From Symbiobacterium sp. (lineage in GTDB: Bacteria > Bacillota > Sulfobacillia > UBA995 > UBA9673), in NCBI GenBank assembly GCA_020725405.1, contig DYFB01000093.1:3183-67182 (forward strand): 64,000 nt of DNA. Direction: 5' to 3'. Under the pieces are notes generated by a model. That model saw only the letters and a program-made list of their open reading frames with translations, was not told the DNA's origin and ran no database searches. The position numbers and the translations under genes are program-made. Shown in pieces: positions 4,104 to 52,956 of this stretch. Position 1 is the stretch's first letter; each line of letters starts with the position of its first letter.

Positions 4104-4320
4104 TGCTTGACCAGGCCGGCATCAGCGTTGCGGGCCAGGGAAGCCCTCAGGGGCCGACGGCTGTTCGGCCGGGCGACGGTCCCCGCTTCACCTGCAGGTC
4201 TGCGCAACCGGCTAAGGAGTTCCCCTCCCGTCTCAGGTAGAATCTAGGAACTCCCTCCGTAGACTGGCTGTGAAGCCCTCCCCCGCGGGGAGGAACAACC
4301 AGTTGAAGGAGGTGAAAAGA

Positions 4321-29240: not shown

Positions 29241-30605
29241 GTGCGGCGCCTCTGGAGAAGAGCCGTACCGGGCCTCCTGCGGCCGGCGGCCGTGCTCGGC
29301 CTCGTCGTCGTCTTCGTGCTTCTCGCGGCCTTTGGCGTCCGCGGGTGCCATCCGCCCCGCGACCCGGCCGATTCCGGGAGCGCCTACACCCCTCCCGAGG
29401 GTCCGAGCGGGCCGACCTCCTTCCGCGGGGGTCCGGGACCCGAATCGGAGCTCGATCCCCTGAACATCTCCGTGGTGATGACCGACCGCATCTTCCAGGA
29501 GACCTACGAGGGGACGGTCGTCGCCCGGCTCGCGCCGGACGGGCGCTCCTTTATCCTGAGCAGCACGTTCCAGCGCGGCGGCCGGAAGTACTACGGGTTC
29601 CAGGTCTGCGACCTCCGGGGGGAAGTGCTCTGGGAGCACGTCTTCCCTGTCTCCGCCTACCGGCGGGCTGATGCTTTCTACCTCGCGGGCGGGCGGTACA
29701 TCGGAGCCGTAGCCTGCGACTACGACCAGGAAGGTGAAGTGCAGATACGGGCGGCCGACGGCCAGTTGGTTTTCACCCGGCCGATAGTCGGTTGGACGAT
29801 GCCGGTCATGTCCGCCCGGGGGTCGTGGCTGGCTCTCTTCAACCAGCAGCGAAACACCCTCAGCGTGTTCGGGCCGCCGAGATTCGAAACCGCCTGGAGC
29901 CTGAAGCTGGGGGAGGGGGCCCACGGCTTCTTCCTCGAGGACGGTCCCCGGTTCCTCCTCATCGAGAGCGGTCGGGCCAGGCTCTTCGGCGCCGGCGGCC
30001 AGGTTCTGTGGTCGGTGGCCATCCCCGGGGGTGGCTACTGGCGGGCCCTGGCCTCGCCGGACGGCCGGTATGTGGCGGCCACGACCGAGGACCCCGACAG
30101 CGCCGTCTACCTCTACTCGGCGGAGGACGGGAGCCTGGTGTGGAGCCAGTCCCTGGTCACGGGGGGCCACAAGAGCCTCGCCTTCTCACCCGACGGGGCT
30201 TCTCTCGTCGTCTACGACATCGGCCAGCACGCGGCCATCTACATGCTCGACGCCGCCGGCGGGAACATCGTCTGGCGCTTCTACCTCACGGCCTACGGCC
30301 GGACCGGCTCGATGATAACCGTTAAGGACCTGCAGTTCACTCCGGACGGCCGCTACATCGTCGCCGACATTGTCGAGTCGACCCTTGACGACCGCACCTA
30401 CGTGATGTACCATTATCTCCTCGCCCTGGCTCCGGACGGGCACGCCCTGTGGATAACCCCGCTGGGCTCGCAGGTGGACGTGGAGATGAACGCGGTCGCC
30501 GGGCTCCTCCTCATCATGACGAACAACGTCACCGACGGCTACGGGCTTATCCGGAACACCCTGACCCTGGTGACCTTCCTCGAGGACCTCACCTCGCCGC
30601 AGTGA
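29241..30605 (+). CDS. Membrane-anchored PQQ/BamB-like beta-propeller repeat protein
   Basis: N-terminal TM VLGLVVVFVLLAAF. Repeated blades with G-x-hydrophobic-W cores (GEVLWEHVF, GQLVFTRPI, GQVLWSVAI, GSLVWSQSL, GNIVWRFYL, GHALWITPL). Confidence 0.7.
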   Translation: MRRLWRRAVPGLLRPAAVLGLVVVFVLLAAFGVRGCHPPRDPADSGSAYTPPEGPSGPTSFRGGPGPESELDPLNISVVMTDRIFQETYEGTVVARLAPDGRSFILSSTFQRGGRKYYGFQVCDLRGEVLWEHVFPVSAYRRADAFYLAGGRYIGAVACDYDQEGEVQIRAADGQLVFTRPIVGWTMPVMSARGSWLALFNQQRNTLSVFGPPRFETAWSLKLGEGAHGFFLEDGPRFLLIESGRARLFGAGGQVLWSVAIPGGGYWRALASPDGRYVAATTEDPDSAVYLYSAEDGSLVWSQSLVTGGHKSLAFSPDGASLVVYDIGQHAAIYMLDAAGGNIVWRFYLTAYGRTGSMITVKDLQFTPDGRYIVADIVESTLDDRTYVMYHYLLALAPDGHALWITPLGSQVDVEMNAVAGLLLIMTNNVTDGYGLIRNTLTLVTFLEDLTSPQ

Positions 30606-30784: not shown

Positions 30785-32773
30785 GTGCTTGAAGGAGCCA
30801 TGACCACCTCCCGCCGCCGGGGCCGCATCCTTCCCCCGTCGACCGTCCTCCAGAACCGCTACCGCATCCTCCGCCTGCACGACCAGGGCGGCTCAGCAAC
30901 CGTGTACCTCGCCGAGCGTCTCGGGGTGGATGAGAGCGTGCCCCTGGCCGTCAAGGAGCTCAACCCGGACGCGTTCAGCCTGGCCGAGTTCAAGAACGAA
31001 GTCAACGTCCTTTACTCGCTGAACCACCCCAACCTCCCCAAGGTCTATGACTTCTTCGAGCAGGACGGGAAGCACTACCTCGTCATGGACTTCGTGCGGG
31101 GTAAGACCCTCAAGCAGATGGTTCTCGAGGGCGGCGCTCTCGGCGAGGACGAGGCCCTGGACTACGCCCTCCAGATATGCGACATCATGACCTACCTCCA
31201 CCGGCGGGCCGAGCGCCGGATCATCCATCGAGACCTCAAGCCGTCGAACCTGATGCTGACTCACGCCGGCCAGGTGAAGCTCCTCGACTTCGGCATCGCC
31301 CGGGTGCCCGACAGCCGGCTCCCGGGCAATCTGCTCCACGCCTACACCGAGGACTACGCCTCCCCCGAGCAGAAGGAGAACCGGCCGACCGACCAGAGGA
31401 GCGATATCTACAGCTTCGGGGTGACCCTCCGCAGCCTTCTCGAGGGAAGGCTGCCGGGCGTCGATGAGGAGGCGCCCGCGGAGGACCTCTCCCCGCCCCG
31501 GCGCAGGCCCAGGGTGTCGCGGGAGATGAGGCGGATACTCGGACGCTGTCTCCGACCCGACCCCGCCGAGCGCTATCAGAGCTTTGAGGAGCTCGCCCGC
31601 GACCTCCGCTCCTACCGGCAGGCCCGGCGGACCAGAACGGCCCGCCGCCTCGGCTTCGCCGCCGCCGCTCTCGGGGTCGCCAGCCTTCTCTTCCTGGCGA
31701 AGGTCCTCTTCGGCCCCTCCCTCTACCCCATCCTGGGGCCCGAGCGCCTGCAGGTCGGGGTCGGGACGGCCCTGCAGGTCGGCCTCCCGGCCGGATGGGA
31801 AGGCAGCCTCGACGGTATCGTCTGGGACATCATCGACACCCAGGCTCCGGGCCAACCGCGCGAGGTCCAGAGGGGCCGGTACTGTTCATTCGTCTCGACC
31901 GATCTCGGCGTGTTCCAGGTCCAGGCCTACCTCGAAACGAACGGCCGCCGCCGGCTCCTGTCCACGGTGAAGAGGATAGAGGTCTACCCGGCCCTGAGCG
32001 TGCCGCACGAGGTTCTGGTGGGGCAGCGCTTCACTCTCTCCTCGCCCGGGGCGACGGCGGGGGGCGGCCGGGAGTACACCTGGCAGTGGACCATCCGCGG
32101 CCCGATTGAGGGCGCCGACGCCGCCTCGGCCCCGGTGGTGCTCCAGAAGTCCACGACCGAGCCGCGGCTGCGGGCGGAGATGGCGGTGGAGGGGACCTAC
32201 GCGGTGTGGCTGAGCGTCAACGTCAAGGCTCCCGGGGGCCTGGAAGTCTCGACCGCCGCGCCGGCGAAGACGCTGGCCGCGGTCACCCGGCTCGTCGTCG
32301 ACCCCAGCCGCGTCATCAGCCGCAACCCGAGCTTCGAGGAGCAGTACGGCGGCCAGCCGACCGACTGGGTCCTCGTCTATACCGCGCAGCTCACCTACGA
32401 CAAGACGATTGGCCGAACCGGCTCACGCTCCATCCGTTTCACCCCGAAGGCGGGTTCGCCCACTCCCTACGCCGTCCAGCTCCTCCCCCTCGAAGACGGG
32501 CGCTCCTACCGCGCTACCGTCTGGGTCAGGGGCGAGAACGTGGCCGACGGCGGGCGCATCTCCCTCGAGGCCCGCTTCCGGTCGCCCGTCGACGAGACCT
32601 ACGTTCTCAGCGACGAGACGGTGACCGTCGACTGGAGCGGGACTTTCGACTGGCGGCAGATGGCCGTCCACTTCTTCGTTCCCTCCGGAAGCGGCGTCAC
32701 CCTCGAGCTGTACCTGAGGTTCAGCGGCAGCGGGTCCGTCTGGTTCGACGACTGCGTGGTCGAGAAGCTCTGA
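30785..32773 (+). CDS. Transmembrane Hanks-type Ser/Thr protein kinase with an extracellular Ig-like plus carbohydrate-binding-module-like (CBM4/9-type) sensor region
   Basis: Kinase subdomains LAVKEL (Lys), HRDLKPSNLML, DFGIA, ASPEQ. Single TM GFAAAALGVASLLFLAKVLF. C-terminal domain SRNPSFEEQYGGQPTDWVLV...GSRSIRFTP...YRATVWVRGEN...GSVWFDDCVV resembles CBM_4_9 sugar-binding modules. Confidence 0.85.
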   Translation: MLEGAMTTSRRRGRILPPSTVLQNRYRILRLHDQGGSATVYLAERLGVDESVPLAVKELNPDAFSLAEFKNEVNVLYSLNHPNLPKVYDFFEQDGKHYLVMDFVRGKTLKQMVLEGGALGEDEALDYALQICDIMTYLHRRAERRIIHRDLKPSNLMLTHAGQVKLLDFGIARVPDSRLPGNLLHAYTEDYASPEQKENRPTDQRSDIYSFGVTLRSLLEGRLPGVDEEAPAEDLSPPRRRPRVSREMRRILGRCLRPDPAERYQSFEELARDLRSYRQARRTRTARRLGFAAAALGVASLLFLAKVLFGPSLYPILGPERLQVGVGTALQVGLPAGWEGSLDGIVWDIIDTQAPGQPREVQRGRYCSFVSTDLGVFQVQAYLETNGRRRLLSTVKRIEVYPALSVPHEVLVGQRFTLSSPGATAGGGREYTWQWTIRGPIEGADAASAPVVLQKSTTEPRLRAEMAVEGTYAVWLSVNVKAPGGLEVSTAAPAKTLAAVTRLVVDPSRVISRNPSFEEQYGGQPTDWVLVYTAQLTYDKTIGRTGSRSIRFTPKAGSPTPYAVQLLPLEDGRSYRATVWVRGENVADGGRISLEARFRSPVDETYVLSDETVTVDWSGTFDWRQMAVHFFVPSGSGVTLELYLRFSGSGSVWFDDCVVEKL

Positions 32774-32787
32774 GCTGACGACACGAT

Positions 32788-35700
32788 ATGAGCCATTCGG
32801 CAAAGGAAGGCCCCCCCCGCGGCGCGAAGAATACGGCTCACCTCTGGAGGAGCTCCGCCTTGCTCTCCGACCTCGGCCGCACAGCGAGAAGGCTCGGCTC
32901 GGCGAGACGGGTGGTCCGGGCGGCCCTGGCCGCTCTGGTCGCCGCCGGTCTCCTCCTCCCCTGCCTGCCCGCACCCCGACCGCTCCTGGCGGCGCCGCCG
33001 GCGACACCGCCCGGTGCGGCCTCGACGTCGTACGCCGATATCGACGGCCACTGGGCGCGCCCGGAGATAGAGGCCCTGCGGGCCCGTGGAGCCCTCCCCC
33101 CCTCGGGGGAGTTTTTCCGGCCCGACGAGCCGGTGACCCGCGGCGAATTCCTGGCCGACCTCGTCCGGGCCCTGGGTTACGGTCCCGAAGCGGCTGAGCT
33201 CGGCGATCACCCGCCGCCGTTCAGCGACGCCGGGGCCGGCGAGACCATCACTGGGCACCTGAGCGCCGGGGTCGAGCACGGTCTCGTCCGCGGCTACCCT
33301 GACGGGACCTTCCGGGCCGACTGGGAGATAACCCGGGCCGAGATCTCGACCATCCTCGTCCGCCTGAGCGGCCTTGCGCCGGACGCTCCCGGACTGGCCG
33401 CCCTGCCCTTTACCGACCGTTCCGACGTTCCGTCTTGGGCGGCGGGCTACATCGCCGTGGCCTACCAGCGGGGCATGGTCCGGGGGTACCCGGACGGCTC
33501 CTTCCGGCCTGAGAGCGGGGCTACCCGAGCCGAGGCCGCCTGCCTCATCTACCGCGCCGTCCGGCTGAGCGGCCGGCTGTTCGACCTTACCGGCCTGGTG
33601 CGCGAGGGCCCCGGAAGCGGGGACAGTCTCGCCGTGGACCTCTGGCCCGCGGGAACGCCCGGAAGCTACGTCGAAGAGGACGGGACTCTTGTCGTCCCCC
33701 TTCCGGATTCCCTCGGCCCCTCCCCGCCCGGGCCGACCGTCCGCGTCAGGATTTCATCGTCTTGCGTGACCTACCGCGATGGTCGACCGGCCGTCCTCTC
33801 CGCGGTGCGCCCGTTCGACGAGGTCGCCCTCATCCTCGACGAGACCGGGGCCGTCGCCTTCATCGAGGCCCTGCGCCCTGACGGTGTCGGTCTGGTCACC
33901 GGAGTCGGGCCCGGGCTCGCCTGGGTCGCTCTCACTTCCCTGGGCGGTGACGGGCCGGAGCGGGTCTTCGCCATCCTGCCCTGGGCGCCGGTCCTCCCTG
34001 CGGGGGCGGGGGGGCGTGCGCCGGTCCTGGGTGACCTGGTCTACTTCATCCTCGACAGCGCGAGCGGCGCCATTCGGGCTCTGGCCCTCATCGGTCCGGT
34101 CGCCGGGGCTTCCGCCGGCCCGGCCGCCGGATTCTCCGCCGACCCGGCCGCCGGGGCGTTCACCGGCCCGGCCGCCGGATTCTCCGCCGACCCGGCCGCC
34201 GGGGCGTTCACCGGCCCGGCCGCGACGACCGGCCCGGACGTCACCACGAGCGAGGTCATCGACCCGGCGGCCGCCCCGCCCCCGCTTCTGACGCCCGCGG
34301 CGGCCATGGCCCTGAGCGCCGCGGCCGTGAACGCCCCCGCGCTCAGGACCCTTACCGGGGCGAGCGGGCGGGGAGTAACCATCGCCATCGTGGACACCGG
34401 AGTGGACGTGAGTCACCCCGACCTCGCTATGACCAGCGCGTGGGAGCGGAAGATCGTCGACTGGCGCGACTTCAGCGGTGAGGGGGACGTGTCGACGACG
34501 AGGATATCGACGGCCGACGCGGTCGGGATTATCCAGACGGACCTCGGGCCGGCCAAGGTCACCGGCATCGTCTCCCAGAGCGGCTTCTACCACTCCGGGG
34601 TCTTCTCCGAAAGCCAGCTTCAACCGGGTGGGCCTCTCGGCGGGGACCTCGACCGGAACGGGCGGACCGGTGACCGCTTCCTGGTGGTCGCCGTCGACCG
34701 ACGCCTCTCCGGCGTCTACGACACCGTCTACGTGGACACCAACCGCAATCTCGACCTCACGGACGAGGTCCCCCTGCGCCCCTACCGCGATACGGCCCTC
34801 GTGGCCTGGTTCGGCGACGCGGGCCGACCGCGGTCCGAACGCTGCTCCTTCGTCCTGGCTGACATCCGCTCCGACGGCAACCGCGTGACCCTCGGCTTCG
34901 ACGGGAACGGTCACGGGACGCACGTCGCCGCCATCTCTTCGGCCTACGGCTCCTACCGCGGCGGGCTCGACGGTCTCGCCCCGGGCACCCGCGTCATGGC
35001 CCTGAAGGCCCTCCGCTCCTCAGGCGACGGGACCTGGGGGGACATCGTCCGGGCCGTCAGCTACGCGGCCCAGAAGGGGGCCGAGATCATCGTCCTCAGC
35101 GTGGCCAACCTCTCGCACGGGGGAGACCTATCCGCGGAGACGGCGGCCATCGCCGCCGTGGCCGCGCGCTACGGCGTGCTGATCGTCTCGGCCGCTGGCA
35201 ACACGGGGCCGGGCGTGGGCACCGCCCGGGGGCTCGGCGCGTCCCCCGGCATTCTTACCGTCGGGGCCGCGCTGGACCAGGCTATGTGGCAGGCATACTT
35301 CGGCTACGCCGTGGAGGGGCGGACCGTCTGGCCGTTCAGCGCCGTGGGGCCGCGCCCCGACCTTTCCGGAGGCCCGGATGTCCTCGCTCCGGGCTGCGCC
35401 CTCTCGGCCGCGCCACTGTGGCTCGAGCCTCCCGGCTACGTCCAGTCCGAGGGGACGAGCATGGCCGCGCCCCATGTCGCCGGAGTGGCCGCCCTGCTCC
35501 TCGAGGCCCTGCGGCAGACCGGCCGGCCTGCTCCGGTGAGTCTTGTGAGTCTTGTCGAGGAGGCCATCCTGGCCGGAGCCCGGCCTCTGGAGGGCTACTC
35601 CTTCGTCGAGCAGGGGCGGGGGGCGGTCGACGCTCTCCGCTCCTGGGAGTGGCTGGCCGGACCGGCGGCGGCGACCGGGAGCGGTGCGGCGCCGCGCCCC

Positions 35701-37440
35701 CGCGGAACCCTCGGCCTCACCCCGAAGGGCGTCTACGACCGCGACGGATCGTCCGCCAGGGTTCTCGCTGAACTCACGGCGAGAGCCCCGGGCCTGCCGG
35801 CCTGGCTTGACCTCTCCGCCGCGGAGCCGTGGGTCGTCGCGGAAAGGCCGAAGCTCGCCCTACCGGTGGGACTCCCTCGCTCCGTAGGGCTGTCCCTCCG
35901 ACCGGACGGGGAAGGCCTCCACTCCACCTTGCTGGTCGGGTCGCAGGGTTTGGCCGAACTCGTTTCCCTGCCGGTGACGGTGGTCGTTCCCGTGGAGTTC
36001 TCCGCCGCTTCCGGCTGGCGGATCTCCGAGGAGGGGGTCCTCGGCCCAGCCCGCCTGGACCGGTGCTTCTTCCGGGTGCCCCCGGGGGCGAGCGCCCTCG
36101 AGGTTTCCTTCGGTGTCGCCGACGCCGGCGGCGGGAACCACGCCGGTCGGGTCCGGCTCTTCCTCTACGGGCCGGACAGCCACCTGGCGGCGGCCACGGG
36201 CTACGTGGGCCAGGGGACCTCCGACGGCTTCGCCTCTCTGGTCCTCGAGGAACCGGCCGCGGGCGTCTGGGAGGCCGTAGTCTACAGCTCCGCAGCCTTG
36301 TCGGCCTTCGGGCTGGACGATTCGCACTACTGGCTTGAGGCGGCTCTATCGGGGGTCGTCTATGACCTTTCCGGCGCCGGGTGGGAGGTGACCGTCGCGT
36401 CCCCGAGCGTGAGCCGGGTCCGGGCCGACCTGCCTCTCGTCAACATCGGAGACGCCTTCGAGGTCGCCCTCGAGGGTTTCGGTCTCTGGCCGCGCGCCTG
36501 GGACCCCCGGCCCGAAGCGGTCACTCTCGGCTCCGGGGAGACCCTGCTCCGGGTACTCCCGCCCCTGGAGGGGCGCTCCGGGCTCCTCCGGGTTCAGCTC
36601 TGCAACGTCCACGCTGAAGCCTGGGATGAGTCCGAGCCCCCGCCGGATCTCGACCTGACCGTCTTCCAGCGCACCGACACGGGCTGGCGGGAGTTCGCCA
36701 GGTCGTCCGCACCTGGTGTCCGCCAGGAAATTGTTGAAATCGTCGACCCGCCGGGGGGTGAGTACGCCGTCCAGGTAACGGCCTCCGGTGGAGCCGGGTG
36801 GGTTTCCTTCGAGCTCAGGTCCCAGTGGCTCCCGGCCGGCGGTCAGGTTACACCGGTGGTTTCGGAGCTGATCCTCCCCGCCGGAGCCCGCCGGCCTGTG
36901 GCCGTGGTTGTCAGCGTACCGACCGGTGAGGGGGCCCGCCTCGGAGCCCTGAGGCTGAGGGACCGCACCGGCAGTTTCGACCTCCGGGGCGGCCTTTCGG
37001 ACACCGTCAGTCTGCTGCCTCTTACGGTCAGACGCACCGCCCAGTCCATCCGGGTCGTTCTCTCCCAGACCTCGCTCGAGCCGGGCCCGAACCTCCTGAC
37101 CTTCCGGGTCCTGACCGCAGACGGGGTGCCGGTCGCCCGCTTCGCCCTGGAAACCGGGGGTCGTCGCTACGAGGCTGCCGGCGGTTTCGTGACGGTGCCC
37201 TGGCCGGCGGCGGACGAGCCCGGACCGGCCAGGGTCTGGGTGCGAACTGTCCTTCCGGATGGGACAGGGTCGGGGTGGCTGTTTCACCTGCCGGTGGTGT
37301 TAACCCAGCCGGGAGAGCGGGGGTCCCGGCCCCTGGGGCCGGGGGCCCCGGCCTGGCTTGAAGCCGAGGGTTTCCGGCCCCCGGAGCTGGACGAGCTCAG
37401 GGAGCTTTTCGACACGGCCCTCGCGGGAGGGGTCTCCTGA
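32788..37440 (+). CDS. SLH-domain-anchored subtilisin-like serine protease (S8 family), 1550 aa, multidomain
   Basis: Signal peptide. Three SLH repeats (YADIDGHWARPEIEALRARGAL..., FSDAGAGETITGHLSAGVEHGLVRGYPDG, FTDRSDVPSWAAGYIAVAYQRGMVRGYPDG). S8 triad VTIAIVDTGVDVSHPDL (D), GNGHGTHVAAI (H), GTSMAAPHVAGVAALL (S). Long C-terminal beta-rich domains. Confidence 0.9.
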   Translation: MSHSAKEGPPRGAKNTAHLWRSSALLSDLGRTARRLGSARRVVRAALAALVAAGLLLPCLPAPRPLLAAPPATPPGAASTSYADIDGHWARPEIEALRARGALPPSGEFFRPDEPVTRGEFLADLVRALGYGPEAAELGDHPPPFSDAGAGETITGHLSAGVEHGLVRGYPDGTFRADWEITRAEISTILVRLSGLAPDAPGLAALPFTDRSDVPSWAAGYIAVAYQRGMVRGYPDGSFRPESGATRAEAACLIYRAVRLSGRLFDLTGLVREGPGSGDSLAVDLWPAGTPGSYVEEDGTLVVPLPDSLGPSPPGPTVRVRISSSCVTYRDGRPAVLSAVRPFDEVALILDETGAVAFIEALRPDGVGLVTGVGPGLAWVALTSLGGDGPERVFAILPWAPVLPAGAGGRAPVLGDLVYFILDSASGAIRALALIGPVAGASAGPAAGFSADPAAGAFTGPAAGFSADPAAGAFTGPAATTGPDVTTSEVIDPAAAPPPLLTPAAAMALSAAAVNAPALRTLTGASGRGVTIAIVDTGVDVSHPDLAMTSAWERKIVDWRDFSGEGDVSTTRISTADAVGIIQTDLGPAKVTGIVSQSGFYHSGVFSESQLQPGGPLGGDLDRNGRTGDRFLVVAVDRRLSGVYDTVYVDTNRNLDLTDEVPLRPYRDTALVAWFGDAGRPRSERCSFVLADIRSDGNRVTLGFDGNGHGTHVAAISSAYGSYRGGLDGLAPGTRVMALKALRSSGDGTWGDIVRAVSYAAQKGAEIIVLSVANLSHGGDLSAETAAIAAVAARYGVLIVSAAGNTGPGVGTARGLGASPGILTVGAALDQAMWQAYFGYAVEGRTVWPFSAVGPRPDLSGGPDVLAPGCALSAAPLWLEPPGYVQSEGTSMAAPHVAGVAALLLEALRQTGRPAPVSLVSLVEEAILAGARPLEGYSFVEQGRGAVDALRSWEWLAGPAAATGSGAAPRPRGTLGLTPKGVYDRDGSSARVLAELTARAPGLPAWLDLSAAEPWVVAERPKLALPVGLPRSVGLSLRPDGEGLHSTLLVGSQGLAELVSLPVTVVVPVEFSAASGWRISEEGVLGPARLDRCFFRVPPGASALEVSFGVADAGGGNHAGRVRLFLYGPDSHLAAATGYVGQGTSDGFASLVLEEPAAGVWEAVVYSSAALSAFGLDDSHYWLEAALSGVVYDLSGAGWEVTVASPSVSRVRADLPLVNIGDAFEVALEGFGLWPRAWDPRPEAVTLGSGETLLRVLPPLEGRSGLLRVQLCNVHAEAWDESEPPPDLDLTVFQRTDTGWREFARSSAPGVRQEIVEIVDPPGGEYAVQVTASGGAGWVSFELRSQWLPAGGQVTPVVSELILPAGARRPVAVVVSVPTGEGARLGALRLRDRTGSFDLRGGLSDTVSLLPLTVRRTAQSIRVVLSQTSLEPGPNLLTFRVLTADGVPVARFALETGGRRYEAAGGFVTVPWPAADEPGPARVWVRTVLPDGTGSGWLFHLPVVLTQPGERGSRPLGPGAPAWLEAEGFRPPELDELRELFDTALAGGVS
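34115..34210 (+). repeat. Perfect 48-bp in-frame tandem duplication inside the S8 protease gene (encodes AGFSADPAAGAFTGPA x2, with partial third copies on both sides)
   Basis: Identical 48-mers at 34115-34162 and 34163-34210. Confidence 0.9.
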
Positions 37441-37823
37441 TGCCGCAGGCTGTCGCAACTCGCAAGGAGAGGATACTTGTCGTCGACGACGAAGAGAGCA
37501 TGCGGGAGCTGCTCCTGGCCCTGTTCCGCAAGAACGGGTACCAGACCGCCGCCGCCCGGAACGCCGCTGAGGCCCTCGCCCTGGCCGCGGAGATGGACCC
37601 GACCGTGGCCGTCATCGACGGTCACCTGCCCGGCGGAGGGGGCGTCGCTTTCATCCGGAAGTTCCGGGGTAGCTTTCCCGAGATACGGACCGTCTTGATG
37701 ACCGCCTACGACAGTCCGGAGCTGCTCGAGGCTGCTTCCCCGGCCGGGGCCGGGGCGTGGGTCCGGAAACCCTTCGACCTGCTTGAGCTACTCGACAAAG
37801 TGGAGAGCCTCTGCCGGATCTGA
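37440..37823 (+). CDS. Stand-alone response-regulator receiver domain (CheY-like), translationally coupled to the subtilase
   Basis: RILVVDDEESMRELL...TVAVIDGHLPG (acceptor Asp)...VLMTAY...WVRKPF. All receiver motifs are intact. ATG overlaps the subtilase stop as TGATG. No output domain. Confidence 0.85.
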   Translation: MPQAVATRKERILVVDDEESMRELLLALFRKNGYQTAAARNAAEALALAAEMDPTVAVIDGHLPGGGGVAFIRKFRGSFPEIRTVLMTAYDSPELLEAASPAGAGAWVRKPFDLLELLDKVESLCRI

Positions 37824-37863: not shown

Positions 37864-40089
37864 GTGGAAGGCTTCATAGCCGCCGCCTGTCAGACAGCCG
37901 CCACGGCCGAGCCGGCCGAGGCCGTCCTCAAGGCCGCCGCGGCCGGGGCCCGCCTGGTGGTCCTTCCGGCCCGGGTTCTGGAGAGGTCCTGGAGCCCGCG
38001 CTCCGGCTCTCGCCCGGCCGGGCCCTCCCGGCCCGGCCCGGGTCGGCGGTCGGAGCCCCGACCCCTACCTGGGCGCGAAGAGCTCCTCTCCCGCGCGGCC
38101 GACCTCGCCCGGCGCGCCGGGTGCTATCTTGCCCCCGGCACGGTGGTCGTTCCGCCGTCCGGCGGAGGCCCGGCTTCCCCGGTGGCCTGGCTGTTCTCCC
38201 CGACGGGCGAGCTCCTGGGTGAGCAGGTCGCTACGCACCTGACCCGGGAGGAGGAGGCTGCCGGGGCGGTCCCGGCTGACGAGCTCAGGGTCTTCGACGT
38301 CGACGGGGTCGGCGTGGGTCTCCTCGTCGGCCTCGACGTCTGGGTGCCGGAGGTCAGCCGCATTCTCGCCCTGGAAGGCGCCGTCGTCCTCCTCGCCCAC
38401 CTCGCCCTGCCCGCGCCCTACTCCGAGGCCCGGCAGCTCGCGGGAGTCTGGCAGGAGGTGCAGCAGAACCAGGTCTTCGGCGTCGAGGCCTGCCTCGTGG
38501 GGTCCCGGGACGGGACCACGTACGCCGGTCGCAGCGCCGTGACCGCCCCCTGCGAGATGACTCCCGGCGAGAGCGGCTTCGTGGTCCGGGCTCCCTCCCC
38601 GGAAACCGCGGTGACCCTGCTCGGGGCCATCGACCTCGCGGCCAGGCGGCGGGTCATCGAGAGTTACGACATCTTCGCCGAGCTCAACGTCGGTCTCTAC
38701 CGGCGGGTCTTCCCACAGGTCTACCTGGCCGCCCGCGAGGCCGGAGCCGCCGGGCCCCCCACCGAGCTGGCCGCCGGGCCTCCCACCGAGCCGACCGCCG
38801 GGCCTCCCACCGAGCCGGCCGGCAGGGACCGGGGCGCAGCGGGACAGCCTCCGGGCGACCGGCGTCCGAGGAGGCGTCCGGGGAAAGGACCGGAGAACCT
38901 CGGGTTCAAGGAGCGGCTCTTCCGGCGCTATCTCACCTTCGTCTCCCGTCCGCGCGTAGTCCGGCGAGCGGTCGCCGCTCTCCGGCTCACGCCTCACCCG
39001 AAGCGGCGGAAGAAAGGCCGGTGGTGGACGGAGCCCGGCCTCGGACGGCCCCGCGCGACCTCCAGGGGGGGCGCCGCTGCCGGCGAGCCCCGGCCGCCGC
39101 GGACGGTGCGGGTCGCGGCCATCCAGCTGGAGTCCTTCTACGCGAGGAACGTCACGGACTACGTCCTCCGTCTCGGAGAACGGTTCCGCGAGGCCGTCGC
39201 CGAGGGGGCCGACCTCGTTGCTTTCCCCGAGTACGTTACCCAACCCCTCATCGGGCTCATCCCCGGGGTCGCGCCGCTGGAGGGGGCGGAGAAGGGCCGC
39301 GACCGGAGCCAGGCCAACCCGGGACCGGACAAGGCCGCGGTGGCCCTGGCCGACGTCACCCGGTTCATGGAGCCCATCTTGAGGAACGTCTACTTCACCT
39401 TGTTCGCGGCCCTGGCCGCCGCGGCGCGGGTCTACGTTCTGGCCGGCGCGACCCCGATGCCCGGGGCCGGCGGCAAGGTCTACAACGTGAGCCACCTCTT
39501 CGGACCGGACGGAAGGCTCATCGGAGCCCAGCCGAAGGTGCACCTCTTCCCCCGGGAGCGGACGGAGGGGCTCTCGCCGGGGGAGGACCTCACGGTCTTC
39601 GAGACGGCCGTCGGGCGGCTGAGCCTGCCGGTGTGCATGGACGCCACCTACTTCGAGACCTACCGACTGGCCGCTCTCCTCGGAGCCGAGATGCTCGGCG
39701 CCCCCGTAGCCAACGCCGAGCCCTACAACTGCTGGAAGCTCCTTCGCGGAGCCTGGCCGCGGGTCCAGGAGACCCCGGTCTACGCCGTGCAGTCGACCCT
39801 CGTCGGCGAGTTCCTCGGCCAGGAGCTCAGCGGGAGGGCGGCCGTCTTCGCCCCGCACGAGCTCACTCCGGCGGGCGACGGGGTCCTGGCTTCGTCGGCC
39901 CAGCCCACCGGCCCCGGGCTGGCCGTGGCCGACCTCGATCTTGACGCTCTCGCCCGCTTCCGCGAGGAGCACCCGGTCTTCCCGCGGCTCAACCTCGCCC
40001 TCATCCGGCGCTACCTGCCCCGGATCTACGAGGACTTCGCCCGGCGGCGGGCGGCTTCCGACCAGGGCCAAGAGGAGTCCCGCCCGTGA
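37864..40089 (+). CDS. Tandem carbon-nitrogen hydrolase (nitrilase-superfamily) protein. N-terminal domain catalytically degenerate, C-terminal domain intact
   Basis: Domain 2: VRVAAIQLE...LVAFPEY (Glu)...SLPVCMDATYFE (Cys). Domain 1 aligns (FIAAACQ...ARLVVLP...VGLLVGLDVWVPEV) but has Gly where the Cys should be. Low-complexity linker. Start chosen at the GTG after SD ggagg. The ORF-track TTG at 37783 overlaps the receiver gene. Confidence 0.7.
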   Translation: MEGFIAAACQTAATAEPAEAVLKAAAAGARLVVLPARVLERSWSPRSGSRPAGPSRPGPGRRSEPRPLPGREELLSRAADLARRAGCYLAPGTVVVPPSGGGPASPVAWLFSPTGELLGEQVATHLTREEEAAGAVPADELRVFDVDGVGVGLLVGLDVWVPEVSRILALEGAVVLLAHLALPAPYSEARQLAGVWQEVQQNQVFGVEACLVGSRDGTTYAGRSAVTAPCEMTPGESGFVVRAPSPETAVTLLGAIDLAARRRVIESYDIFAELNVGLYRRVFPQVYLAAREAGAAGPPTELAAGPPTEPTAGPPTEPAGRDRGAAGQPPGDRRPRRRPGKGPENLGFKERLFRRYLTFVSRPRVVRRAVAALRLTPHPKRRKKGRWWTEPGLGRPRATSRGGAAAGEPRPPRTVRVAAIQLESFYARNVTDYVLRLGERFREAVAEGADLVAFPEYVTQPLIGLIPGVAPLEGAEKGRDRSQANPGPDKAAVALADVTRFMEPILRNVYFTLFAALAAAARVYVLAGATPMPGAGGKVYNVSHLFGPDGRLIGAQPKVHLFPRERTEGLSPGEDLTVFETAVGRLSLPVCMDATYFETYRLAALLGAEMLGAPVANAEPYNCWKLLRGAWPRVQETPVYAVQSTLVGEFLGQELSGRAAVFAPHELTPAGDGVLASSAQPTGPGLAVADLDLDALARFREEHPVFPRLNLALIRRYLPRIYEDFARRRAASDQGQEESRP
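38749..38820 (+). repeat. 24-bp in-frame tandem repeat x3 in the CN-hydrolase interdomain linker (encodes AGPPTE[LP][AT])
   Basis: gccgggccYcccaccgagcYgRcc x3, read directly from the sequence. Confidence 0.85.
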
Positions 40090-42092
40090 AGCGGCTGACG
40101 GTCCCTGAGGAGATGGACTTCGCCCGCCGCCTCTACCCGACCGGGAACCATTTCGTCTCACTCCCCGTTGTCGAGGCCGCCGATGCTTCCGTGGACCGGG
40201 TGGGCGTCCTCCATATGGGAGCGGCCGGCCTCGTGGAGTTCGGCGGGCCCCAGGCCGAGCTCGGGGCCGAGACCCTCCCGGCCCTGGAGCCGCTTATCAG
40301 ACCCTTCATCCTGATCGGCGGTCGGACGTCCGGTCCGGGCCGCGGCGCCACGGCGAGCCCATCCTGGCGGCGCCTCTGGGATTGGGTCCCGGCCTTTGAG
40401 TGGCGTGACGAGCCCAGCGGACTTGTCCTCAAGGGGACGCTGCTTGCCCCTGTCTGGGCGGCCCGCGAGGGTCTCCAGTCGCACAAGGGGTTCGTCTACG
40501 TCCTGGAGGTCTCCGGCCCGGCCGCCGGCGGCGCGCCGCCTGAGGACCTCCGACTCGGCCTCACCCTGACGTGGGGGGACCTTCTGGAGACCGTCTACAC
40601 CTCAAGACGCCTCCCCGCCGCTCTGAGCGTCAGGCGGGACCGCTGGACCGGCGGTCCGGTGCTCGAACCCCGCGCGGGCTCAGGGGCCGGCCCGGCGGCC
40701 CTGGCTGTCTCCTTCTCCGTCCCGGGCGAGGACGTGGAGTGGACGGCCCGGACCGACGAGGCCGGAGTCATCCGGGTGGAGATGACCGCGCGCCCGCGGG
40801 GAGGAGCGGCAGCCTTCTACTTCGGCCTCAACCGGGAGGGGGACGGGGCCCGGACGGTTGCCGTCGACCTCGCCCGCCACGGCTGGGAGAGCCTTCTCCG
40901 GGCCACGGGGGCCGCCCTCGCTCCCCTGCGGCGGCCGGTGGCCGGGGAGGACCGCTTGGGAGCCGCCGGCGAAGAATCGAGAGTCCTGGGCGGCCGGCTG
41001 AACCTGAACCTCCTCTTTAACTACTTCTTCGCCGCCGGGCGAACCATCGATACCGAGGAGCTCGTCCTGGTCACCAGCCGGAGCCCGCTGTACTACGTCA
41101 GCGCGGCCTTCTGGGCAAGGGACGCCCTGCTCTGGAGCCTCCCCGGCCTCCTTCTTGTCGACCCCGGCCTGGCCGAGGAAGCTCTGGGCGAGGCCTTCGG
41201 CCGCTACTTCCGTCACGCCGGCATCCACTCGCTCTACATGGACGGAACCCTCCTCTACCCGGGATTCGAGCTGGACGAGCTCGCCGCCTACCCCATCGCC
41301 CTCTGGCGCTACGTCCGGTCGACGGGGGACGTCGCCATCCTGGGACGGCGGGGTCTCGGGCCGAAGCTTCGGCGGATTCTCGACCTCATGGAGGAACAGG
41401 CCCATCCGGACCCGAATATCCACTTGTACCGGACGTTCCTCCTGCCCTCGGACGACCCGGCCACTCATCCCTACGTGACCTACGACAACGTCATGGCCTG
41501 GCGCGCCTTGCTCTGCGCGGCCGACCTTCTGGAGTGGGCGGAGGGCCGGGACGGGGCGGAGCTGAGAGACCGGGCGGAGAGGGTCAGGGCTTCCGTCTAC
41601 CGCCACCTTGTGGTCGACGGCCCGGGAGGCCCGGTCTTCGCTTGGTCGGCCGACCTGGAGGGCGGGGTGGAGCTGGGCGACGAGCCCCCGGGAAGCCTGG
41701 AGCTCCTGCCGTACTACGGCTTCTGCTCGCGGGAGGATGAGGTCTGGCGCCGGACGGTCGGGTGGATCCACTCGCGGGAGAACCCCTACCGCTACCTCGA
41801 CGTCCCGTTCCCGGGGGTGGGGTGCCCGCACTCGCCCCATCCGTTCGTCATGAGCTTATTCAACGCTCTCCTGGGGGGTCTTCCCGAGAGGATCGCCGAG
41901 GCCCGGTCGGTGCTGCTCAAGGCTCCGCTGGATACCGGGCTCGCCTGCGAGGCCTTCGACCGCCGGACCGGGGAGGTTAAGACGGGAGCGGCCTTCGCCA
42001 CGTGCGCGGGGTTCCTGGCCTACGCCATGCACCGGGTTTTCGGGCGGCCGGCGCATGGAGAATACAGGAATGGTCCCGGGTTTGTGGAATAG
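40086..42092 (+). CDS. Hypothetical 668-aa protein, putative six-hairpin (alpha/alpha)6 glycosidase-like; family not assignable from sequence alone
   Basis: Central block LNLNLLFNYFFAAGRTIDTEELVLVTSRSPLYYVSAAFWARDALLWSLPGLLLVDPGLAEEALGEAF is reminiscent of GH63/GH125/GH15-type barrels. The GTG start overlaps the upstream stop. Confidence 0.4.
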   Translation: MKRLTVPEEMDFARRLYPTGNHFVSLPVVEAADASVDRVGVLHMGAAGLVEFGGPQAELGAETLPALEPLIRPFILIGGRTSGPGRGATASPSWRRLWDWVPAFEWRDEPSGLVLKGTLLAPVWAAREGLQSHKGFVYVLEVSGPAAGGAPPEDLRLGLTLTWGDLLETVYTSRRLPAALSVRRDRWTGGPVLEPRAGSGAGPAALAVSFSVPGEDVEWTARTDEAGVIRVEMTARPRGGAAAFYFGLNREGDGARTVAVDLARHGWESLLRATGAALAPLRRPVAGEDRLGAAGEESRVLGGRLNLNLLFNYFFAAGRTIDTEELVLVTSRSPLYYVSAAFWARDALLWSLPGLLLVDPGLAEEALGEAFGRYFRHAGIHSLYMDGTLLYPGFELDELAAYPIALWRYVRSTGDVAILGRRGLGPKLRRILDLMEEQAHPDPNIHLYRTFLLPSDDPATHPYVTYDNVMAWRALLCAADLLEWAEGRDGAELRDRAERVRASVYRHLVVDGPGGPVFAWSADLEGGVELGDEPPGSLELLPYYGFCSREDEVWRRTVGWIHSRENPYRYLDVPFPGVGCPHSPHPFVMSLFNALLGGLPERIAEARSVLLKAPLDTGLACEAFDRRTGEVKTGAAFATCAGFLAYAMHRVFGRPAHGEYRNGPGFVE

Positions 42093-42180: not shown

Positions 42181-42831
42181 TTGAGGCTCTTCCTCGATAC
42201 AGCCAACATCGACGAGATCCGCGAAGCTGTCAGCTGGGGAGTCATTTCCGGGGTGACGACCAACCCCACCCTGGTAGCCAAGGAGCAGGGCCGGAGCTTC
42301 AGCGACATCGTCTCTGAGATCACCGCCATAGTTCCGGGACCCGTCAGTGTCGAGGCCGTCAGCCTGGACGCCGCGGCCATGATCGAGGAGGCCCGCCGCC
42401 TGTCGGCCATGGCCGGCAACGTCGTCGTTAAGATACCCATGACGCCCGAAGGGCTCAAGGCGGTGAAGGTCCTGGCCGGCGAGGGCGTGCGGACCAACGT
42501 CACCCTTGTCTTCTCGGCCAACCAGGCCCTGCTGGCCGCCCTGGCCGGGGCGACCTATGTCAGCCCGTTCGTCGGGCGCCTTGACGACATCGGACACGAG
42601 GGCCTCGAGGTCGTGCGGGATACCGCGGACATCTTCCAGCTCCACGCGCTCGAGACCGAGATCATCGCCGCGAGCATCCGCCACCCGCTGCACGTGATGG
42701 ACGCGGCTAAGGCCGGGGCCGACATCGCCACCGTGCCGATGAAGGTGCTCAGGGCTATGGCCGCCCACCCGCTGACCGACCGCGGGGTGGAGATGTTCCT
42801 CGCCGACTGGGCGAAAGTGAAGAAAGGGTAG
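42181..42831 (+). CDS. tal: Transaldolase / fructose-6-phosphate aldolase (short TalC/FSA subfamily)
   Basis: [35 protein letters not shown] and Schiff-base Lys region VVVKIP. SD gaaggagg before the TTG. Confidence 0.9.
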
Positions 42832-43032
42832 CCGGGGCTGACCCCGGAGTTATAGCCGGTCGTCCCCCGGACTATGCTAGTACAGCCGGGTTACCCCGTT
42901 GTAACCTTCCGTTGTCGACAGGGTCAGCACGAACGTCAGGACATGTCATCCAGCTTCCAACCGGGACTCATCCCCTGTTGTCTTCCGTTTACCGCACGGC
43001 GCCTGTGACGCTAGAGGACGAGGTGACTAAGG

Positions 43033-44289
43033 TTGAACATCGCCCAGCTTGAGTCCAAGACCCTGAAGGAGCTCTACCAGTTGGCCCGGGATCTCGAGCT
43101 CAACGGGTACTCGGAGATGAACAAGAAGGAGCTCATCTTCGAGATTCTCAAGGCCAACATCGAGAAGGAGGGCTCCATCTTCGCCGAAGGCGTTCTGGAG
43201 ATCATGCCGGAGGGGTTCGGCTTTCTCCGGCCTATCGGCTACCTTCCCAGCCGCCAGGACGTTTACGTCTCGCCCTCGCAGATACGGCGCTTTTGCCTGA
43301 AGACGGGAGACTACGTCTCGGGGCAGGTCCGCCCGCCGAAGGAGTCCGAGCGGTACTACGCCCTCCTGCGGGTGGAGGCCATCAACGAGGAGAACCCGGA
43401 TGTCGCCAAGGACCGGGTGGCCTTCGAGGCCCTGACCCCGGTCTTCCCGGACGAGCGGCTGACCCTCGAGACGACCCGGAACGAGATCTCGACGAGGCTC
43501 ATCGACCTCATCGCCCCCATCGGGCGGGGCCAGCGCGGCCTCATCGTCTCGCCTCCCAAGGCCGGCAAGACGGTCCTCTTGAAGCAGATAGCCAACGCCA
43601 TCATGGCCAACGCCCCGGCCGTCCACCTCATCGTCCTCCTGGTCGACGAGCGACCGGAAGAGGTGACCGACATGGAGCGGTCGGTCACCGGTGAGGTCGT
43701 GAGCTCGACCTTCGACGAGCTCCCCGAGAACCACATCAAGGTCGCCGACATGGTTCTCGAGCGGGCCAAGCGCCTCGTCGAGCACCGGAAGGACGTCGTC
43801 ATTCTCCTTGACAGCCTGACCCGGCTCGCGCGGGCTCACAACCTTGTCGTCCCGCCGAGCGGCCGGACCCTGTCCGGAGGCATTGACCCCGCGGCCCTGC
43901 ACAAGCCGCGCCGGTTCTTCGCGGCGGCCCGGAACATCGAGGAGGGCGGGAGCCTGACGATCATCGCCACCTGCCTCATCGACACGGGCAGCCGGATGGA
44001 CGATATCATCTACGAGGAGTTCAAGGGCACCGGCAATCTCGAGATCCACCTTGACCGCCAGCTTTCCGAGAGACGCATCTTTCCGGCCATTGACGTGAAG
44101 CGGTCCGGGACCCGCAAGGAGGAGCTGCTCCTCAGCCCGGAGGAGCTCGAGATGACCTACGCCCTCCGCCGGGCCCTCAACGCTCTCGGGAACCAGGAGG
44201 CGGCCGAGATTCTCATCGACCGCCTGAAGAAGACGAAGTCCAACGAGGAGTTCCTCAGGATGGTCCTCAAGGGGCTGCAGATGACCTGA
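43033..44289 (+). CDS. rho: Transcription termination factor Rho
   Basis: N-terminal [43 protein letters not shown]-binding and RecA-like domains ([15 protein letters not shown]). Long leader of about 200 nt. Confidence 0.95.
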
Positions 44290-48902: not shown

Positions 48903-49591
48903 CCTTCGTTCGCGACCTCGTCTTCATGTGGGAGATACTGCCAGAGCTCCTCAAGGGCCTGGTGGTCACTTTCCAGCTGACGACCCTGGCCCTCGTGACC
49001 GGAGTCATCCTCGCCGTGCCGGTGGCCCTGGTCCGGAAGTACACCCGGGGTCCGCTCAATTGGCTGGCCACGGCCTACGTCGAGATCTTCCGCGGGACGC
49101 CGCTCCTCGTCCAGCTTTTCGTCGTCTACTACGGCCTTCCCGAGCTGGGCATCGTCTTCGACCGCTTCACGGCCGCCTGGGCGGCCCTCTTCCTCAACTC
49201 CGCCGCCTACCAGTCCGAGTACATCCGGGGCGCCATCGGGGCGGTCAGCGAGGGCCAGCTCATCGCCGCCCGGGCCCTGGGGATGAAGCCCCTGGCCGCC
49301 TTCAGGTGGGTGGTGATGCCCCAGGCCCTACGGCTGGCCCTGCCGGCCTGGTCCAACGAGGTCGCCTACATGGTCAAGTACGTCTCGGTCGTCTACCTGA
49401 TAGGAGCCATGGAGCTCTTCACCCGGGGGCAGATCATCATCAGCCGGACCCTCAAGGTCGTGCCGGTCCTCCTTGAGGTGGCCGCCATCTACATCATCGT
49501 CGTCGTGGCTATCACCCGGGTGATGGACTACGTGGAGCACCGGTTCAGCATACCCGGGCTGGAGACCTCGGGAATGAGGAGAGAGTTTTGA
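48899..49591 (+). CDS. Amino-acid ABC transporter permease, second subunit
   Basis: [41 protein letters not shown]. Overlaps the ATPase stop. Confidence 0.85.
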
Positions 49592-52826: not shown

Positions 52827-52956
52827 CTCCGGAGCGTGGACACAATAGGCTGAAGAGGAAACCCGAGCCAGGATGACCGGGCGCCGGGCGGATGACCAGC
52901 AACGCCTGAAGACGGGGGAGCGCGCCCCGAGACGCGCGGCCCGAGAGCGGTACCCG

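Follow-up and report, generated by a model that had tools for sequence, protein, structure and literature searches.

The protease gene and the receiver gene that share a TGATG junction in the analysed stretch of DNA (the window, 64 kb) are probably two functionally independent neighbours, a wall protease and a receiver that serves the sporulation phosphorelay as a shuttle of the Spo0F type, with an incidental overlap between them; we hold this explanation with moderate confidence. Both would have become neighbours by chance in a lineage-conserved, co-directional block of genes of uncultured high-G+C Bacillota. The protease would cleave extracellular or envelope proteins or peptides. The receiver would accept a phosphoryl group at Asp60 from at least one orphan histidine kinase whose gene lies elsewhere and would hand it on, most likely in the manner of Spo0F, since its gene is located at the spo0F position, Spo0F is its best structure match and spoIID is present in the window.

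Gene order around the protease and the receiver

The block and the adjoining backbone genes are arranged as follows:

29241..30605, + strand: membrane-anchored PQQ-like beta-propeller protein, first gene of the conserved block (Pfam PQQ_2, 4.8e-10; N-terminal hydrophobic anchor)
30785..32773, + strand: Ser/Thr protein kinase of the Hanks type; single transmembrane segment, C-terminal domain extracellular (Pfam Pkinase, 2e-40)
32788..37440, + strand: TPPII-like S8 subtilase, predicted to be SLH-anchored (longest ORF, 1550 codons; Pfam)
37440..37823, + strand: stand-alone phospho-accepting receiver of 127 aa at the spo0F position (Pfam, invariant residues, PDB matches)
37864..40089, + strand: cytoplasmic tandem nitrilase-superfamily protein (Pfam CN_hydrolase, 5.4e-33, two stretches)
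40086..42092, + strand: GH125-like protein, no signal peptide (Pfam Glyco_hydro_125, 5.8e-18, residues 445-640)
42181..44289, + strand: transaldolase (42181-42831, Pfam TAL_FSA, 4.6e-62) and Rho (43033-44289, Rho domains), backbone markers of the spo0F neighbourhood

The translation of the Ser/Thr kinase comprises the motifs HRDLKPSN, DFG and SPE together with a transmembrane stretch, and its orthologues showed weak matches to CBM_4_9 or PKD. The contexts of the orthologous loci were obtained via exact-protein look-ups. The order propeller-kinase-protease-receiver is kept in all nine loci examined and is suggested in at least five more lineages; the beta-propeller gene was found upstream of the kinase also in L004, L005, L006, L090, L091 and L092, and the locus of the divergent receiver orthologue P0478 (L093) showed the same gene order. 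Since the whole region, including the housekeeping genes, is equally syntenic, this conservation says little.

The protease

From the sequence alone, the protease had been described as a protein of 1550 amino acids with three SLH repeats, an intact Asp/His/Ser triad and about 700 residues of C-terminal beta-domains. The ORF 32788-37440 (+) is present at this length, although the probable true start is the TTG at 32860, resulting in 1526 amino acids. This agrees with the NCBI call P0515, to which the window protein is identical from residue 25 onward, and a GGAGG motif (32846-32850) lies 9 nt ahead of this TTG. The repeats and the triad were both confirmed, and the protein is divided as follows:

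33031..33561, + strand: three SLH repeats, predicted wall-polysaccharide anchor (residues about 82-258)
34366..35637, + strand: S8 catalytic domain (residues about 527-950) with triad D536, H709, S891 and oxyanion residue N805
35725..37302, + strand: C-terminal all-beta region with several beta-sandwich domains (residues about 980-1505; AlphaFold2 model)

In Pfam, SLH was matched with 8.6e-30 in three stretches (best at residues 207-251) and Peptidase_S8 with 1.5e-35 (123.3 bits against a cut-off of 21.8; residues 527-910). D536, H709, S891 and N805 are invariant among the 15 orthologues aligned, as are the W/G/Y-P-D/TRAE columns of the SLH repeats in the alignment of protease orthologues; the 14 full-length orthologues share 46-97% identity. 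Concerning the C-terminal part, the AlphaFold2 model of residues 351-1550, of moderate confidence overall (pLDDT 64.9), showed strands alone at model residues 630-1155, where the pLDDT is mostly 70-90. The all-beta region therefore comprises about 525 of the about 600 residues that follow the catalytic domain, fewer than had been stated. A weak PPC match at residues 1094-1167 was below the Pfam cut-off.

The N-terminus of the translation is basic and then hydrophobic, suggesting a signal peptide. Because of this predicted signal peptide and the three SLH repeats, the protease is predicted to be extracellular: it would be exported via the former and held at the wall by the latter. Within the 64-kb window, which is one part of the genome, a PS_pyruv_trans (CsaB) match was absent, and genes for WecG/TagA, a TagO-like protein and MnaA are present there.

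The best solved relative of the protease is tripeptidyl-peptidase II (TPP II, PDB 3lxu), both by sequence (1.6e-49) and as the fold match of the model (E 4.1e-35, 1078 aligned columns), and the orthologue P0010 is named 'tripeptidyl-peptidase-2' by JGI. Judged from sequence and model, the protease appears to resemble TPP II in its S8 domain, in the long insert that separates the catalytic Asp from the His (173 residues between D536 and H709) and in a large non-catalytic C-terminal part, at an identity of about 17% and a TM-score of 0.26 for the model of pLDDT 64.9. In eukaryotes, TPP II forms a giant oligomer in the cytosol, whereas the window protease carries a predicted signal peptide and three SLH repeats. 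A subtilase joined to SLH wall-anchoring repeats has been described for Thermoanaerobacter tengcongensis (NP_624131.1, architecture Subt-PA-DUF1034-Big_2-SLH; PMC2605481). In contrast to this protein, the SLH repeats of the window protease are N-terminal and its catalytic domain is TPPII-like instead of the PA-domain type. A search of protease peptides against genomes resulted in SLH-level matches only and no orthologous locus, and the protease alignment against metagenomes found generic subtilases, with no orthologues among the matches listed.

The receiver and the absence of a histidine kinase

The receiver matched Pfam Response_reg with 1e-20 (74.4 bits, the cut-off being 30.2) over residues 12-121 of 127. 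Since this was its sole Pfam match, it comprises no output domain. Across 21 orthologues, whose overall identity is only about 50-60%, no substitution occurs at D16, D17, D60, T88 or K110, and much of helix 1 is likewise unchanged. The description of a 127-aa receiver with every phospho-acceptor residue and no output domain is thus fully supported. According to the cluster table, P0512 is identical in sequence to the window receiver. None of the NCBIfam models approached its cut-off with the receiver, and a model specific to Spo0F was not among the matches.

The receiver of the window lineage is without the C-terminal tail present in all other orthologues, as would be expected for a decaying, functionless remnant. 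Such a remnant is very improbable in view of the conservation seen at all five active-site residues and in much of helix 1 among the 21 orthologues, and of an intact ORF with a strong Shine-Dalgarno site. Compared to CheY-like stand-alone receivers (PF00072 only), fold family, active-site residues and the missing output domain are alike, whereas the window comprises no chemotaxis genes and CheY structures score well below Spo0F.

As had been claimed, no histidine kinase is encoded in the window: none of its 46 predicted genes matched HisKA or HATPase_c in Pfam, and none appeared in the gene tables of the orthologous loci, which extend at most about 10 kb from the protease gene in each direction. 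The locus therefore does not fit a classical two-component operon, in which the histidine kinase adjoins the regulator. Sporulation kinases are orphans encoded away from spo0F (PMC6136694). Since the receiver gene is located at the spo0F position and sporulation kinases are encoded elsewhere, a missing histidine kinase nearby is expected (PMC6136694).

The spo0F position

The receiver gene precedes transaldolase-rho-rpmE-prfA by three genes, and in Firmicutes this is the place of spo0F. The order in the window is receiver-(2 genes)-TAL-Rho-L31-...-RF1-PrmC-Sua5/LMW-PTP-RpiB-...-MurA-SpoIID-M23-Mbl and is colinear with the order spo0F (BSU37130)-fbaA (37120)-tal (37110) of B. subtilis (PMC6136694, S3 Table). 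The operational definition of Spo0F asks for a stand-alone REC no more than four ORFs away from fbaA, transaldolase or CTP synthase (PMC6136694), and for the window receiver TAL_FSA is found three ORFs downstream on the same strand. Among the 46 predicted genes of the window fbaA and pyrG were not found, so that TAL is the only marker of the three in this neighbourhood. Furthermore, a gene in the window passed the SpoIID equivalog model TIGR02870 with 298.6 bits (cut-off 234.75), which indicates that the lineage carries sporulation genes.

Sequence comparison with Spo0F

Searched against the PDB, the lineage receiver profile scored 92-100 bits for Spo0F structures and at most 70 bits for all other receivers; with the window receiver as single sequence, Spo0F reached 77 and the next 54. 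The lineage HMM placed Bacillaceae Spo0F first (111-114 bits), the best of 619 background REC domains reaching 103, and three receiver orthologue clusters are named 'stage 0 sporulation protein F' by JGI. The receiver thus resembles Spo0F (PDB 1NAT, 1PEY, 1F51; PMC6136694) in consisting of one REC (about 125 aa) in which the DD-D-T-K set is complete, in lacking an adjacent kinase, in its location shortly before the transaldolase gene of the tal-rho-rpmE backbone and in its best solved-structure match.

Other comparisons set the receiver apart from Spo0F. Its identity is 34% to Spo0F of B. subtilis and 29% to the validated Spo0F of D. acetoxidans (range 29-35%), while some NtrC-type REC domains reach 41-45%. 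A Spo0F HMM gave 76.7 bits for the window receiver, a score equalled or exceeded by 99 of the 619 unrelated REC domains. In neighbour-joining with 200 bootstraps, the Bacillaceae Spo0F clade had the lineage as its direct partner in none and lay within the sister group of the lineage in five, whereas in the positive control Bacillaceae and D. acetoxidans (Desulfotomaculum) Spo0F joined in 143. At the seven predicted docking residues, ESMLALD in the window and EGML[AVIT]LD in the lineage stand against QG[IV]LE[VAIL]D in nearly all Spo0F; the near-invariant Glu of Spo0F at position 5 is replaced, and the docking signature of Spo0F is therefore not found. The nearest docking variant listed was EGILQLD of a non-sporulating Exiguobacterium. 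The loop following Asp60 is GGGG compared to PGM[DN]G in Spo0F. Besides the docking residues (E[SG]ML[AV]LD), this loop, the failure to cluster with canonical Spo0F and the missing fbaA and pyrG, a further difference is the location of the receiver within an operon-like block, with the protease upstream and the nitrilase-like gene downstream. Altogether, orthology of the receiver to Spo0F is not established by these sequence comparisons.

Searching the receiver profile against representatives gave multi-receiver proteins ranked by summed score as the best 150, which is why this search was uninformative on the nearest single-domain relatives. Among the matches listed for B. subtilis Spo0F, all were from Bacillaceae with at least 84% identity and hence offered no bridge to this lineage. 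The context of the tree sister P0161 consisted of unrelated genes (Tex, PAS-GGDEF) and was uninformative as well.

The stop/start overlap

The protease TGA (37438-37440) and the receiver ATG (37440-42) overlap by one base within TGATG, exactly as the sequence-only reading had noted. The receiver has a ribosome-binding site of its own:

37425..37432, + strand: Shine-Dalgarno sequence GGGAGGGG of the receiver, within the last protease codons (read from the sequence)

In the orthologous loci the GGAGG-type sites of the receiver are located in intergenic spacers instead. Of the nine loci, only the window and L004 (97% identical) showed a spacing of -1 nt, while L005, L006, L090, L091, L092, L093 and L094 showed +32, +34, +48, +11, +79, +63 and +63 nt. 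Of 40 junctions between same-strand genes of the window, 11 overlap, some of them joining genes of unrelated function such as Sua5/RpiB/deaminase, and the one-base overlap is not beyond chance expectation. The claim of an unusual and meaningful coupling of protease and receiver is not supported by this comparison. The overlap looks incidental, an ordinary by-product of a compact genome, and would have arisen recently and locally by the shortening of a spacer of 11-79 nt rather than being a conserved coupling device.

A scan for terminators and promoters resulted in counts at background, with no site in the short gaps between the block genes, which is compatible with co-transcription and proves nothing. 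A perfect Spo0A box (TTCGACA, 37408-37414) precedes the receiver ATG by 25 nt. As none of the five diverged orthologous loci inspected has this box, it was treated as chance; in the window seven such boxes were counted compared to 4.3 expected, a number reached by 15 of 100 shuffles.

A deliberate translational coupling would make the receiver part of an envelope-sensing module that answers the adjacent kinase, under control of the Hanks kinase or of the protease activity. The gene order common to all nine loci and the lack of terminator-like sites in the short gaps would fit such a module, and Ser/Thr kinases phosphorylate some response regulators. Nevertheless, we regard it as improbable: the overlap is missing from seven of the nine loci, the receiver gene is provided with a Shine-Dalgarno site of its own, and nothing beyond shared synteny links kinase and receiver. 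Moreover, a Hanks kinase cannot phosphorylate Asp60, and the invariant DD-D-T-K set indicates His-Asp chemistry. From the earlier suggestion of a phosphate sink or connector responding to the adjacent kinase, the connector is retained, as it fits a Spo0F-like shuttle, whereas the adjacent kinase is of the Hanks Ser/Thr type and not a histidine kinase.

The genes downstream of the receiver

Judged by eye, the first domain of the nitrilase-like protein appears to be without the catalytic Glu, Lys and Cys, while the second comprises FPE, KVHLF and VCMD; in NCBIfam the protein showed only sub-threshold nitrilase or AguB matches. Its GTG start overlaps the receiver stop by 8 nt (GTGnnTAG) in L005, L006, L090, L091 and L092, and in L093 the overlap is 4 nt, amounting to six of nine loci. 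The window lineage has lost this overlap and shows a gap of 40 nt and a shortened receiver tail. In the window, the start of the GH125-like gene overlaps the stop of the nitrilase-like gene by 4 nt. The receiver, nitrilase-like and GH125-like genes are found as a set in each locus of the clade, and all three are missing from L007 and L009 of the sister clade, where the protease gene is located upstream of TAL and no receiver was found; the gaps of 500-590 nt after the protease in L009 and L007 contain no hidden receiver ORF.

These three genes could therefore form a real unit, in which the receiver would act outside the sporulation relay as a lineage-specific regulator together with the two enzymes, for example by phosphorylation-dependent binding. 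The overlap in six of nine loci hints at such a tie, as do the 4-nt overlap of the two enzyme genes in the window, the common presence and absence of the three genes, and docking residues and a tree unlike those of canonical Spo0F. On the other hand, overlaps are common in this genome and the one between receiver and nitrilase-like gene was lost in the window lineage, the common presence and absence represents a single evolutionary event, and the position beside TAL would have to be a coincidence. We know of no precedent for a receiver-nitrilase pairing. Overall, such a unit is a less probable explanation.

A still wider proposal would regard the whole block as one operon, in which the membrane beta-propeller, the Hanks kinase with its extracellular sugar-binding-like domain, the protease, the receiver, the half-dead tandem nitrilase and the GH125-like protein connect envelope sensing or proteolysis to a divergent phosphorelay of the sporulation type, with the Ser/Thr kinase or the enzymes encoded downstream acting directly on the Spo0F-like receiver. 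We consider this combination unlikely and prefer the explanation of two independent neighbours.

Significance

The overlap itself matters little, and a protease next to a receiver is an ordinary finding; both genes are modest curiosities. The TPPII-like subtilase, predicted to be wall-anchored, is the second of these and independent of the receiver, TPP II being known as a cytosolic eukaryotic enzyme. The first is a divergent stand-alone receiver in an uncultured, high-G+C, SLH-rich clade of Bacillota, located at the site that spo0F occupies in Bacilli and early-branching Clostridia. If its role in a relay is true, the receiver would extend the reach of the Spo0F/Spo0B phosphorelay and would provide an example of drift of the docking surface.

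The protease and its neighbours

The receiver and the genes around it are arranged as follows:

29241-30605, upstream: membrane-anchored PQQ-like beta-propeller protein
30785-32773, upstream: Hanks-type Ser/Thr kinase (Pkinase, 2e-40), spanning the membrane once, with its C-terminal part extracellular
32788-37440, + strand: protease (S8 subtilase with SLH repeats), longest ORF, stop TGA at 37438-37440
37440-37823, + strand: stand-alone receiver, ATG at 37440
37864-40089, downstream: tandem nitrilase-superfamily protein
40086-42092, downstream: GH125-like protein

The window has a G+C content of 69%, rising to about 90% at codon third positions. ATG 32788, the start of the longest protease ORF (1550 codons, used here for residue numbers), has no ribosome-binding site in front. 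Since a GGAGG sits nine bases before TTG 32860 and the NCBI call for an identical protein (P0515, 1526 aa) also begins there, TTG 32860 is the likelier start, giving a protease of 1526 aa.

Pfam identified the three SLH repeats (8.6e-30) and, at residues 527-910, a Peptidase_S8 domain (1.5e-35), in agreement with the sequence-only reading. The alignment of protease orthologues, 14 of which are full-length (46-97% identity; from metagenome bins of uncultured Bacillota and 'Clostridiales'), shows no change at the triad (D536, H709, S891) or at the oxyanion N805. The triad Asp and His are 173 residues apart, an interval that comprises 32 residues in subtilisin and about 220 in tripeptidyl-peptidase II (TPP II). 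Drosophila TPP II (3lxu) is the closest solved relative by sequence (1.6e-49), with a match extending beyond the catalytic domain, and also by fold (Foldseek E 4.1e-35, 1078 aligned columns), as determined with a moderate-quality AlphaFold2 model (pLDDT 64.9) that covers residues 351-1550. The C-terminal beta-domains had been overestimated at about 700 aa; the all-beta part of the AlphaFold2 model comprises residues 980-1505 (pLDDT mostly 70-90). The protein is read as a secreted, wall-anchored, TPPII-like subtilase, whereby export and anchoring are predictions based on the sequence of its N-terminus and on the SLH repeats. The combination of a subtilase with SLH repeats is shared with known proteins and represents an architecture already described (PMC2605481). 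A public genome scan with protease peptides gave SLH-level matches only and no orthologous locus, and a metagenome scan with the protease alignment gave generic subtilases, with no orthologues among the matches listed.

Junctions of the receiver gene

The protease TGA and the receiver ATG have one base in common within TGATG, as originally noticed. The meaningful coupling proposed from this overlap is not supported, because the overlap was seen only in the window and in the orthologous locus L004 (97% identical). Elsewhere, with receiver starts aligned, spacers of +32 (L005), +34 (L006), +48 (L090), +11 (L091), +79 (L092), +63 (L093) and +63 nt (L094) were determined. Moreover, a strong Shine-Dalgarno sequence of its own (GGGAGGGG, 37425-37432) precedes the receiver. 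Since 11 of the 40 same-strand junctions in the window overlap, including functionally unrelated pairs (Sua5-LMW-PTP/RpiB/deaminase; ABC permease/DUF1385), the overlap can be explained as the default of a compact genome. Altogether, we are fairly confident that the lineage-conserved block holds protease and receiver as two independent genes, with an overlap that is incidental. A perfect match to a Spo0A box upstream of the receiver ATG was rejected, as it is missing at the five diverged orthologous loci compared.

The main rival reading is that the receiver is functionally grouped with the two downstream cytoplasmic enzymes (nitrilase-like and GH125-like), and the better-conserved overlap is indeed the one with the nitrilase-like gene. 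In L005, L006, L090, L091 and L092 the receiver TAG lies within GTGnnTAG together with the nitrilase-like start, and the two genes of L093 overlap by 4 nt. The window lineage has lost the basic C-terminal tail of the receiver, and a 40-nt gap has opened before the nitrilase-like gene.

In all other orthologues this tail ends in RRG-like residues, and its codons hold the start of the next gene (alignment A3). In the first domain of the nitrilase-like protein, which reads LVVLPAR and has no FPE, catalytic Glu, Lys and Cys are missing by eye; FPE, KVHLF and VCMD are retained in the second, and a very basic linker (PRRRPGKG...KRRKKGRWW) connects both. All NCBIfam models were far from threshold for this protein.

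Conservation of the locus

The orthologous locus was recovered from eight other genomes (L004, L005, L006 and L090-L094). The contigs of L093 and L094 start within the protease gene, so that only downstream genes are visible. The six loci spanning the upstream region showed an identical order of propeller, kinase, protease, receiver, nitrilase-like, GH125-like, transaldolase and Rho genes. Contigs of matching length in the protease and receiver clusters point to this arrangement of the two genes in at least five further lineages. In two sister-clade loci (L007, 10001-14662; L009, 6922-11661) an SLH subtilase of 31% identity lies directly upstream of transaldolase and Rho, without receiver, kinase, propeller, nitrilase-like or GH125-like genes, and the gaps after the protease contain no hidden receiver ORF. 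This indicates that the position of the protease predates the other genes of the block.

A coupling of the receiver to the protease or to the 'adjacent kinase', which is the Hanks-type Ser/Thr kinase, was proposed before. It is an unlikely reading with no support beyond the shared synteny, and the flanking housekeeping genes are equally syntenic. The kinase orthologues in L005, L006 and L092 showed weak CBM_4_9 or PKD matches in the extracellular C-terminal region, and the membrane-anchored propeller gene precedes the kinase in every case; together the two may sense the wall or carbohydrates.

Other features of the window

The left third (1863-27181) is an envelope-polysaccharide island comprising three Wzy_C/O-antigen-ligase-like proteins (one with fused TPR repeats), several GT4 glycosyltransferases, WecG/TagA, a sugar transferase, GDP-mannose dehydratase, epimerases and a CtpB-like S41 protease that carries PDZ and peptidoglycan-binding domains. 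A single ORF (52873-54687) fuses Sua5/YwlC (threonylcarbamoyl-AMP synthase) to LMWPc (residues 406-549), a low-molecular-weight phosphotyrosine/arginine phosphatase; B. subtilis encodes the two proteins in distinct, adjacent genes, ywlC and ywlE. The ORF at 20-1609 (529 aa) shows a strong coding signal, and neither Pfam nor NCBIfam gave a match for it. Further features are:

1863-4043: SLH protein of the polysaccharide island
4270-6531: SLH protein of the polysaccharide island
49588-50577: DUF1385 protein, between ABC permease and RF1

Relation of the receiver to Spo0F

As first described, the 127-aa receiver has the phospho-acceptor residues and no output domain (Response_reg at residues 12-121, 1e-20, 74.4 bits versus a cut-off of 30.2). 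The database protein P0512 has the identical sequence. The invariance of D16, D17, D60, T88 and K110, and of much of helix 1, in 21 orthologues whose identity is otherwise 50-60% indicates, at the level of sequence, a working phospho-acceptor under selection.

Both the position of the receiver and its similarity to known proteins point to Spo0F. Starting from the receiver and two further genes, the window backbone runs TAL, Rho, LysM-M23, L31, ..., DUF1385, RF1, PrmC, Sua5/LMW-PTP, RpiB, ..., TagO-like, MnaA, MurA, SpoIID, M23, Mbl. It is colinear with the spo0F-fbaA-tal region of B. subtilis, which goes on with murAB, glpX, rho and rpmE. The order spo0F (BSU37130), fbaA (BSU37120) and tal (BSU37110) is documented in S3 Table of PMC6136694. 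In the work of Davidson et al. on Firmicutes, Spo0F was recognised by being a stand-alone REC at most four ORFs from fbaA, transaldolase or CTP synthase, and one clostridial candidate found in this way was validated biochemically (PMC6136694); the window receiver qualifies via transaldolase. Against the PDB, the profile of the receiver lineage scored Spo0F structures at 92-100 bits and all other receivers at 70 or less, and the single sequence gave 77 versus 54 bits. The lineage HMM placed Bacillaceae Spo0F on top (111-114 bits), compared to 103 for the best of 619 background REC domains, which are the lineage's best matches elsewhere. Three orthologue clusters are named 'stage 0 sporulation protein F' by JGI annotation, and the window encodes a true SpoIID (TIGR02870, 298.6 bits versus 234.75).

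Nevertheless, several observations argue against filing the receiver as Spo0F. B. subtilis Spo0F is 34% identical to it and the validated Spo0F of D. acetoxidans 29%, while several NtrC-type receivers reach 41-45%. In the reverse search with a Spo0F HMM it scored 76.7 bits, equalled or exceeded by 99 of the 619 unrelated REC domains. Among 200 neighbour-joining bootstraps the lineage was monophyletic in 178, paired directly with the Bacillaceae Spo0F clade in none and next to a sister group including that clade in 5, whereas Bacillaceae and D. acetoxidans Spo0F were united in 143. The seven docking residues are ESMLALD in the window and EGML[AVIT]LD in the lineage, compared to QG[IV]LE[VAIL]D in nearly all Spo0F candidates; the closest variant among those listed is EGILQLD from a non-sporulating Exiguobacterium. 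The loop after the phospho-Asp is GGGG in the 21 orthologues (one GGEG exception), compared to PGM[DN]G in Spo0F and usually MPxxxG in receivers. No NCBIfam model came close to threshold, and the sister clade lacks the receiver. A Spo0F homologue search gave no bridge to the lineage among the hits listed, all of them from Bacillaceae; the genomic context of the tree sister P0161, and an exhaustive representative search with the receiver profile for the nearest single-domain relatives, were uninformative.

In accordance with the sequence-only reading, no histidine kinase (HisKA, HATPase_c) and no second receiver was found among the 46 predicted window genes (Pfam). Sporulation kinases are orphans, and a kinase-free neighbourhood is normal for Spo0F (PMC6136694). 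Altogether, we give about even odds to the reading of the receiver as a stand-alone module for phosphotransfer that is supplied by kinases encoded elsewhere and is most likely a divergent equivalent of Spo0F by position. In Bacillus, extracellular proteases and the phosphorelay are both part of the post-exponential response, and by analogy such a response might, speculatively, provide a rationale for co-expression of protease and receiver.
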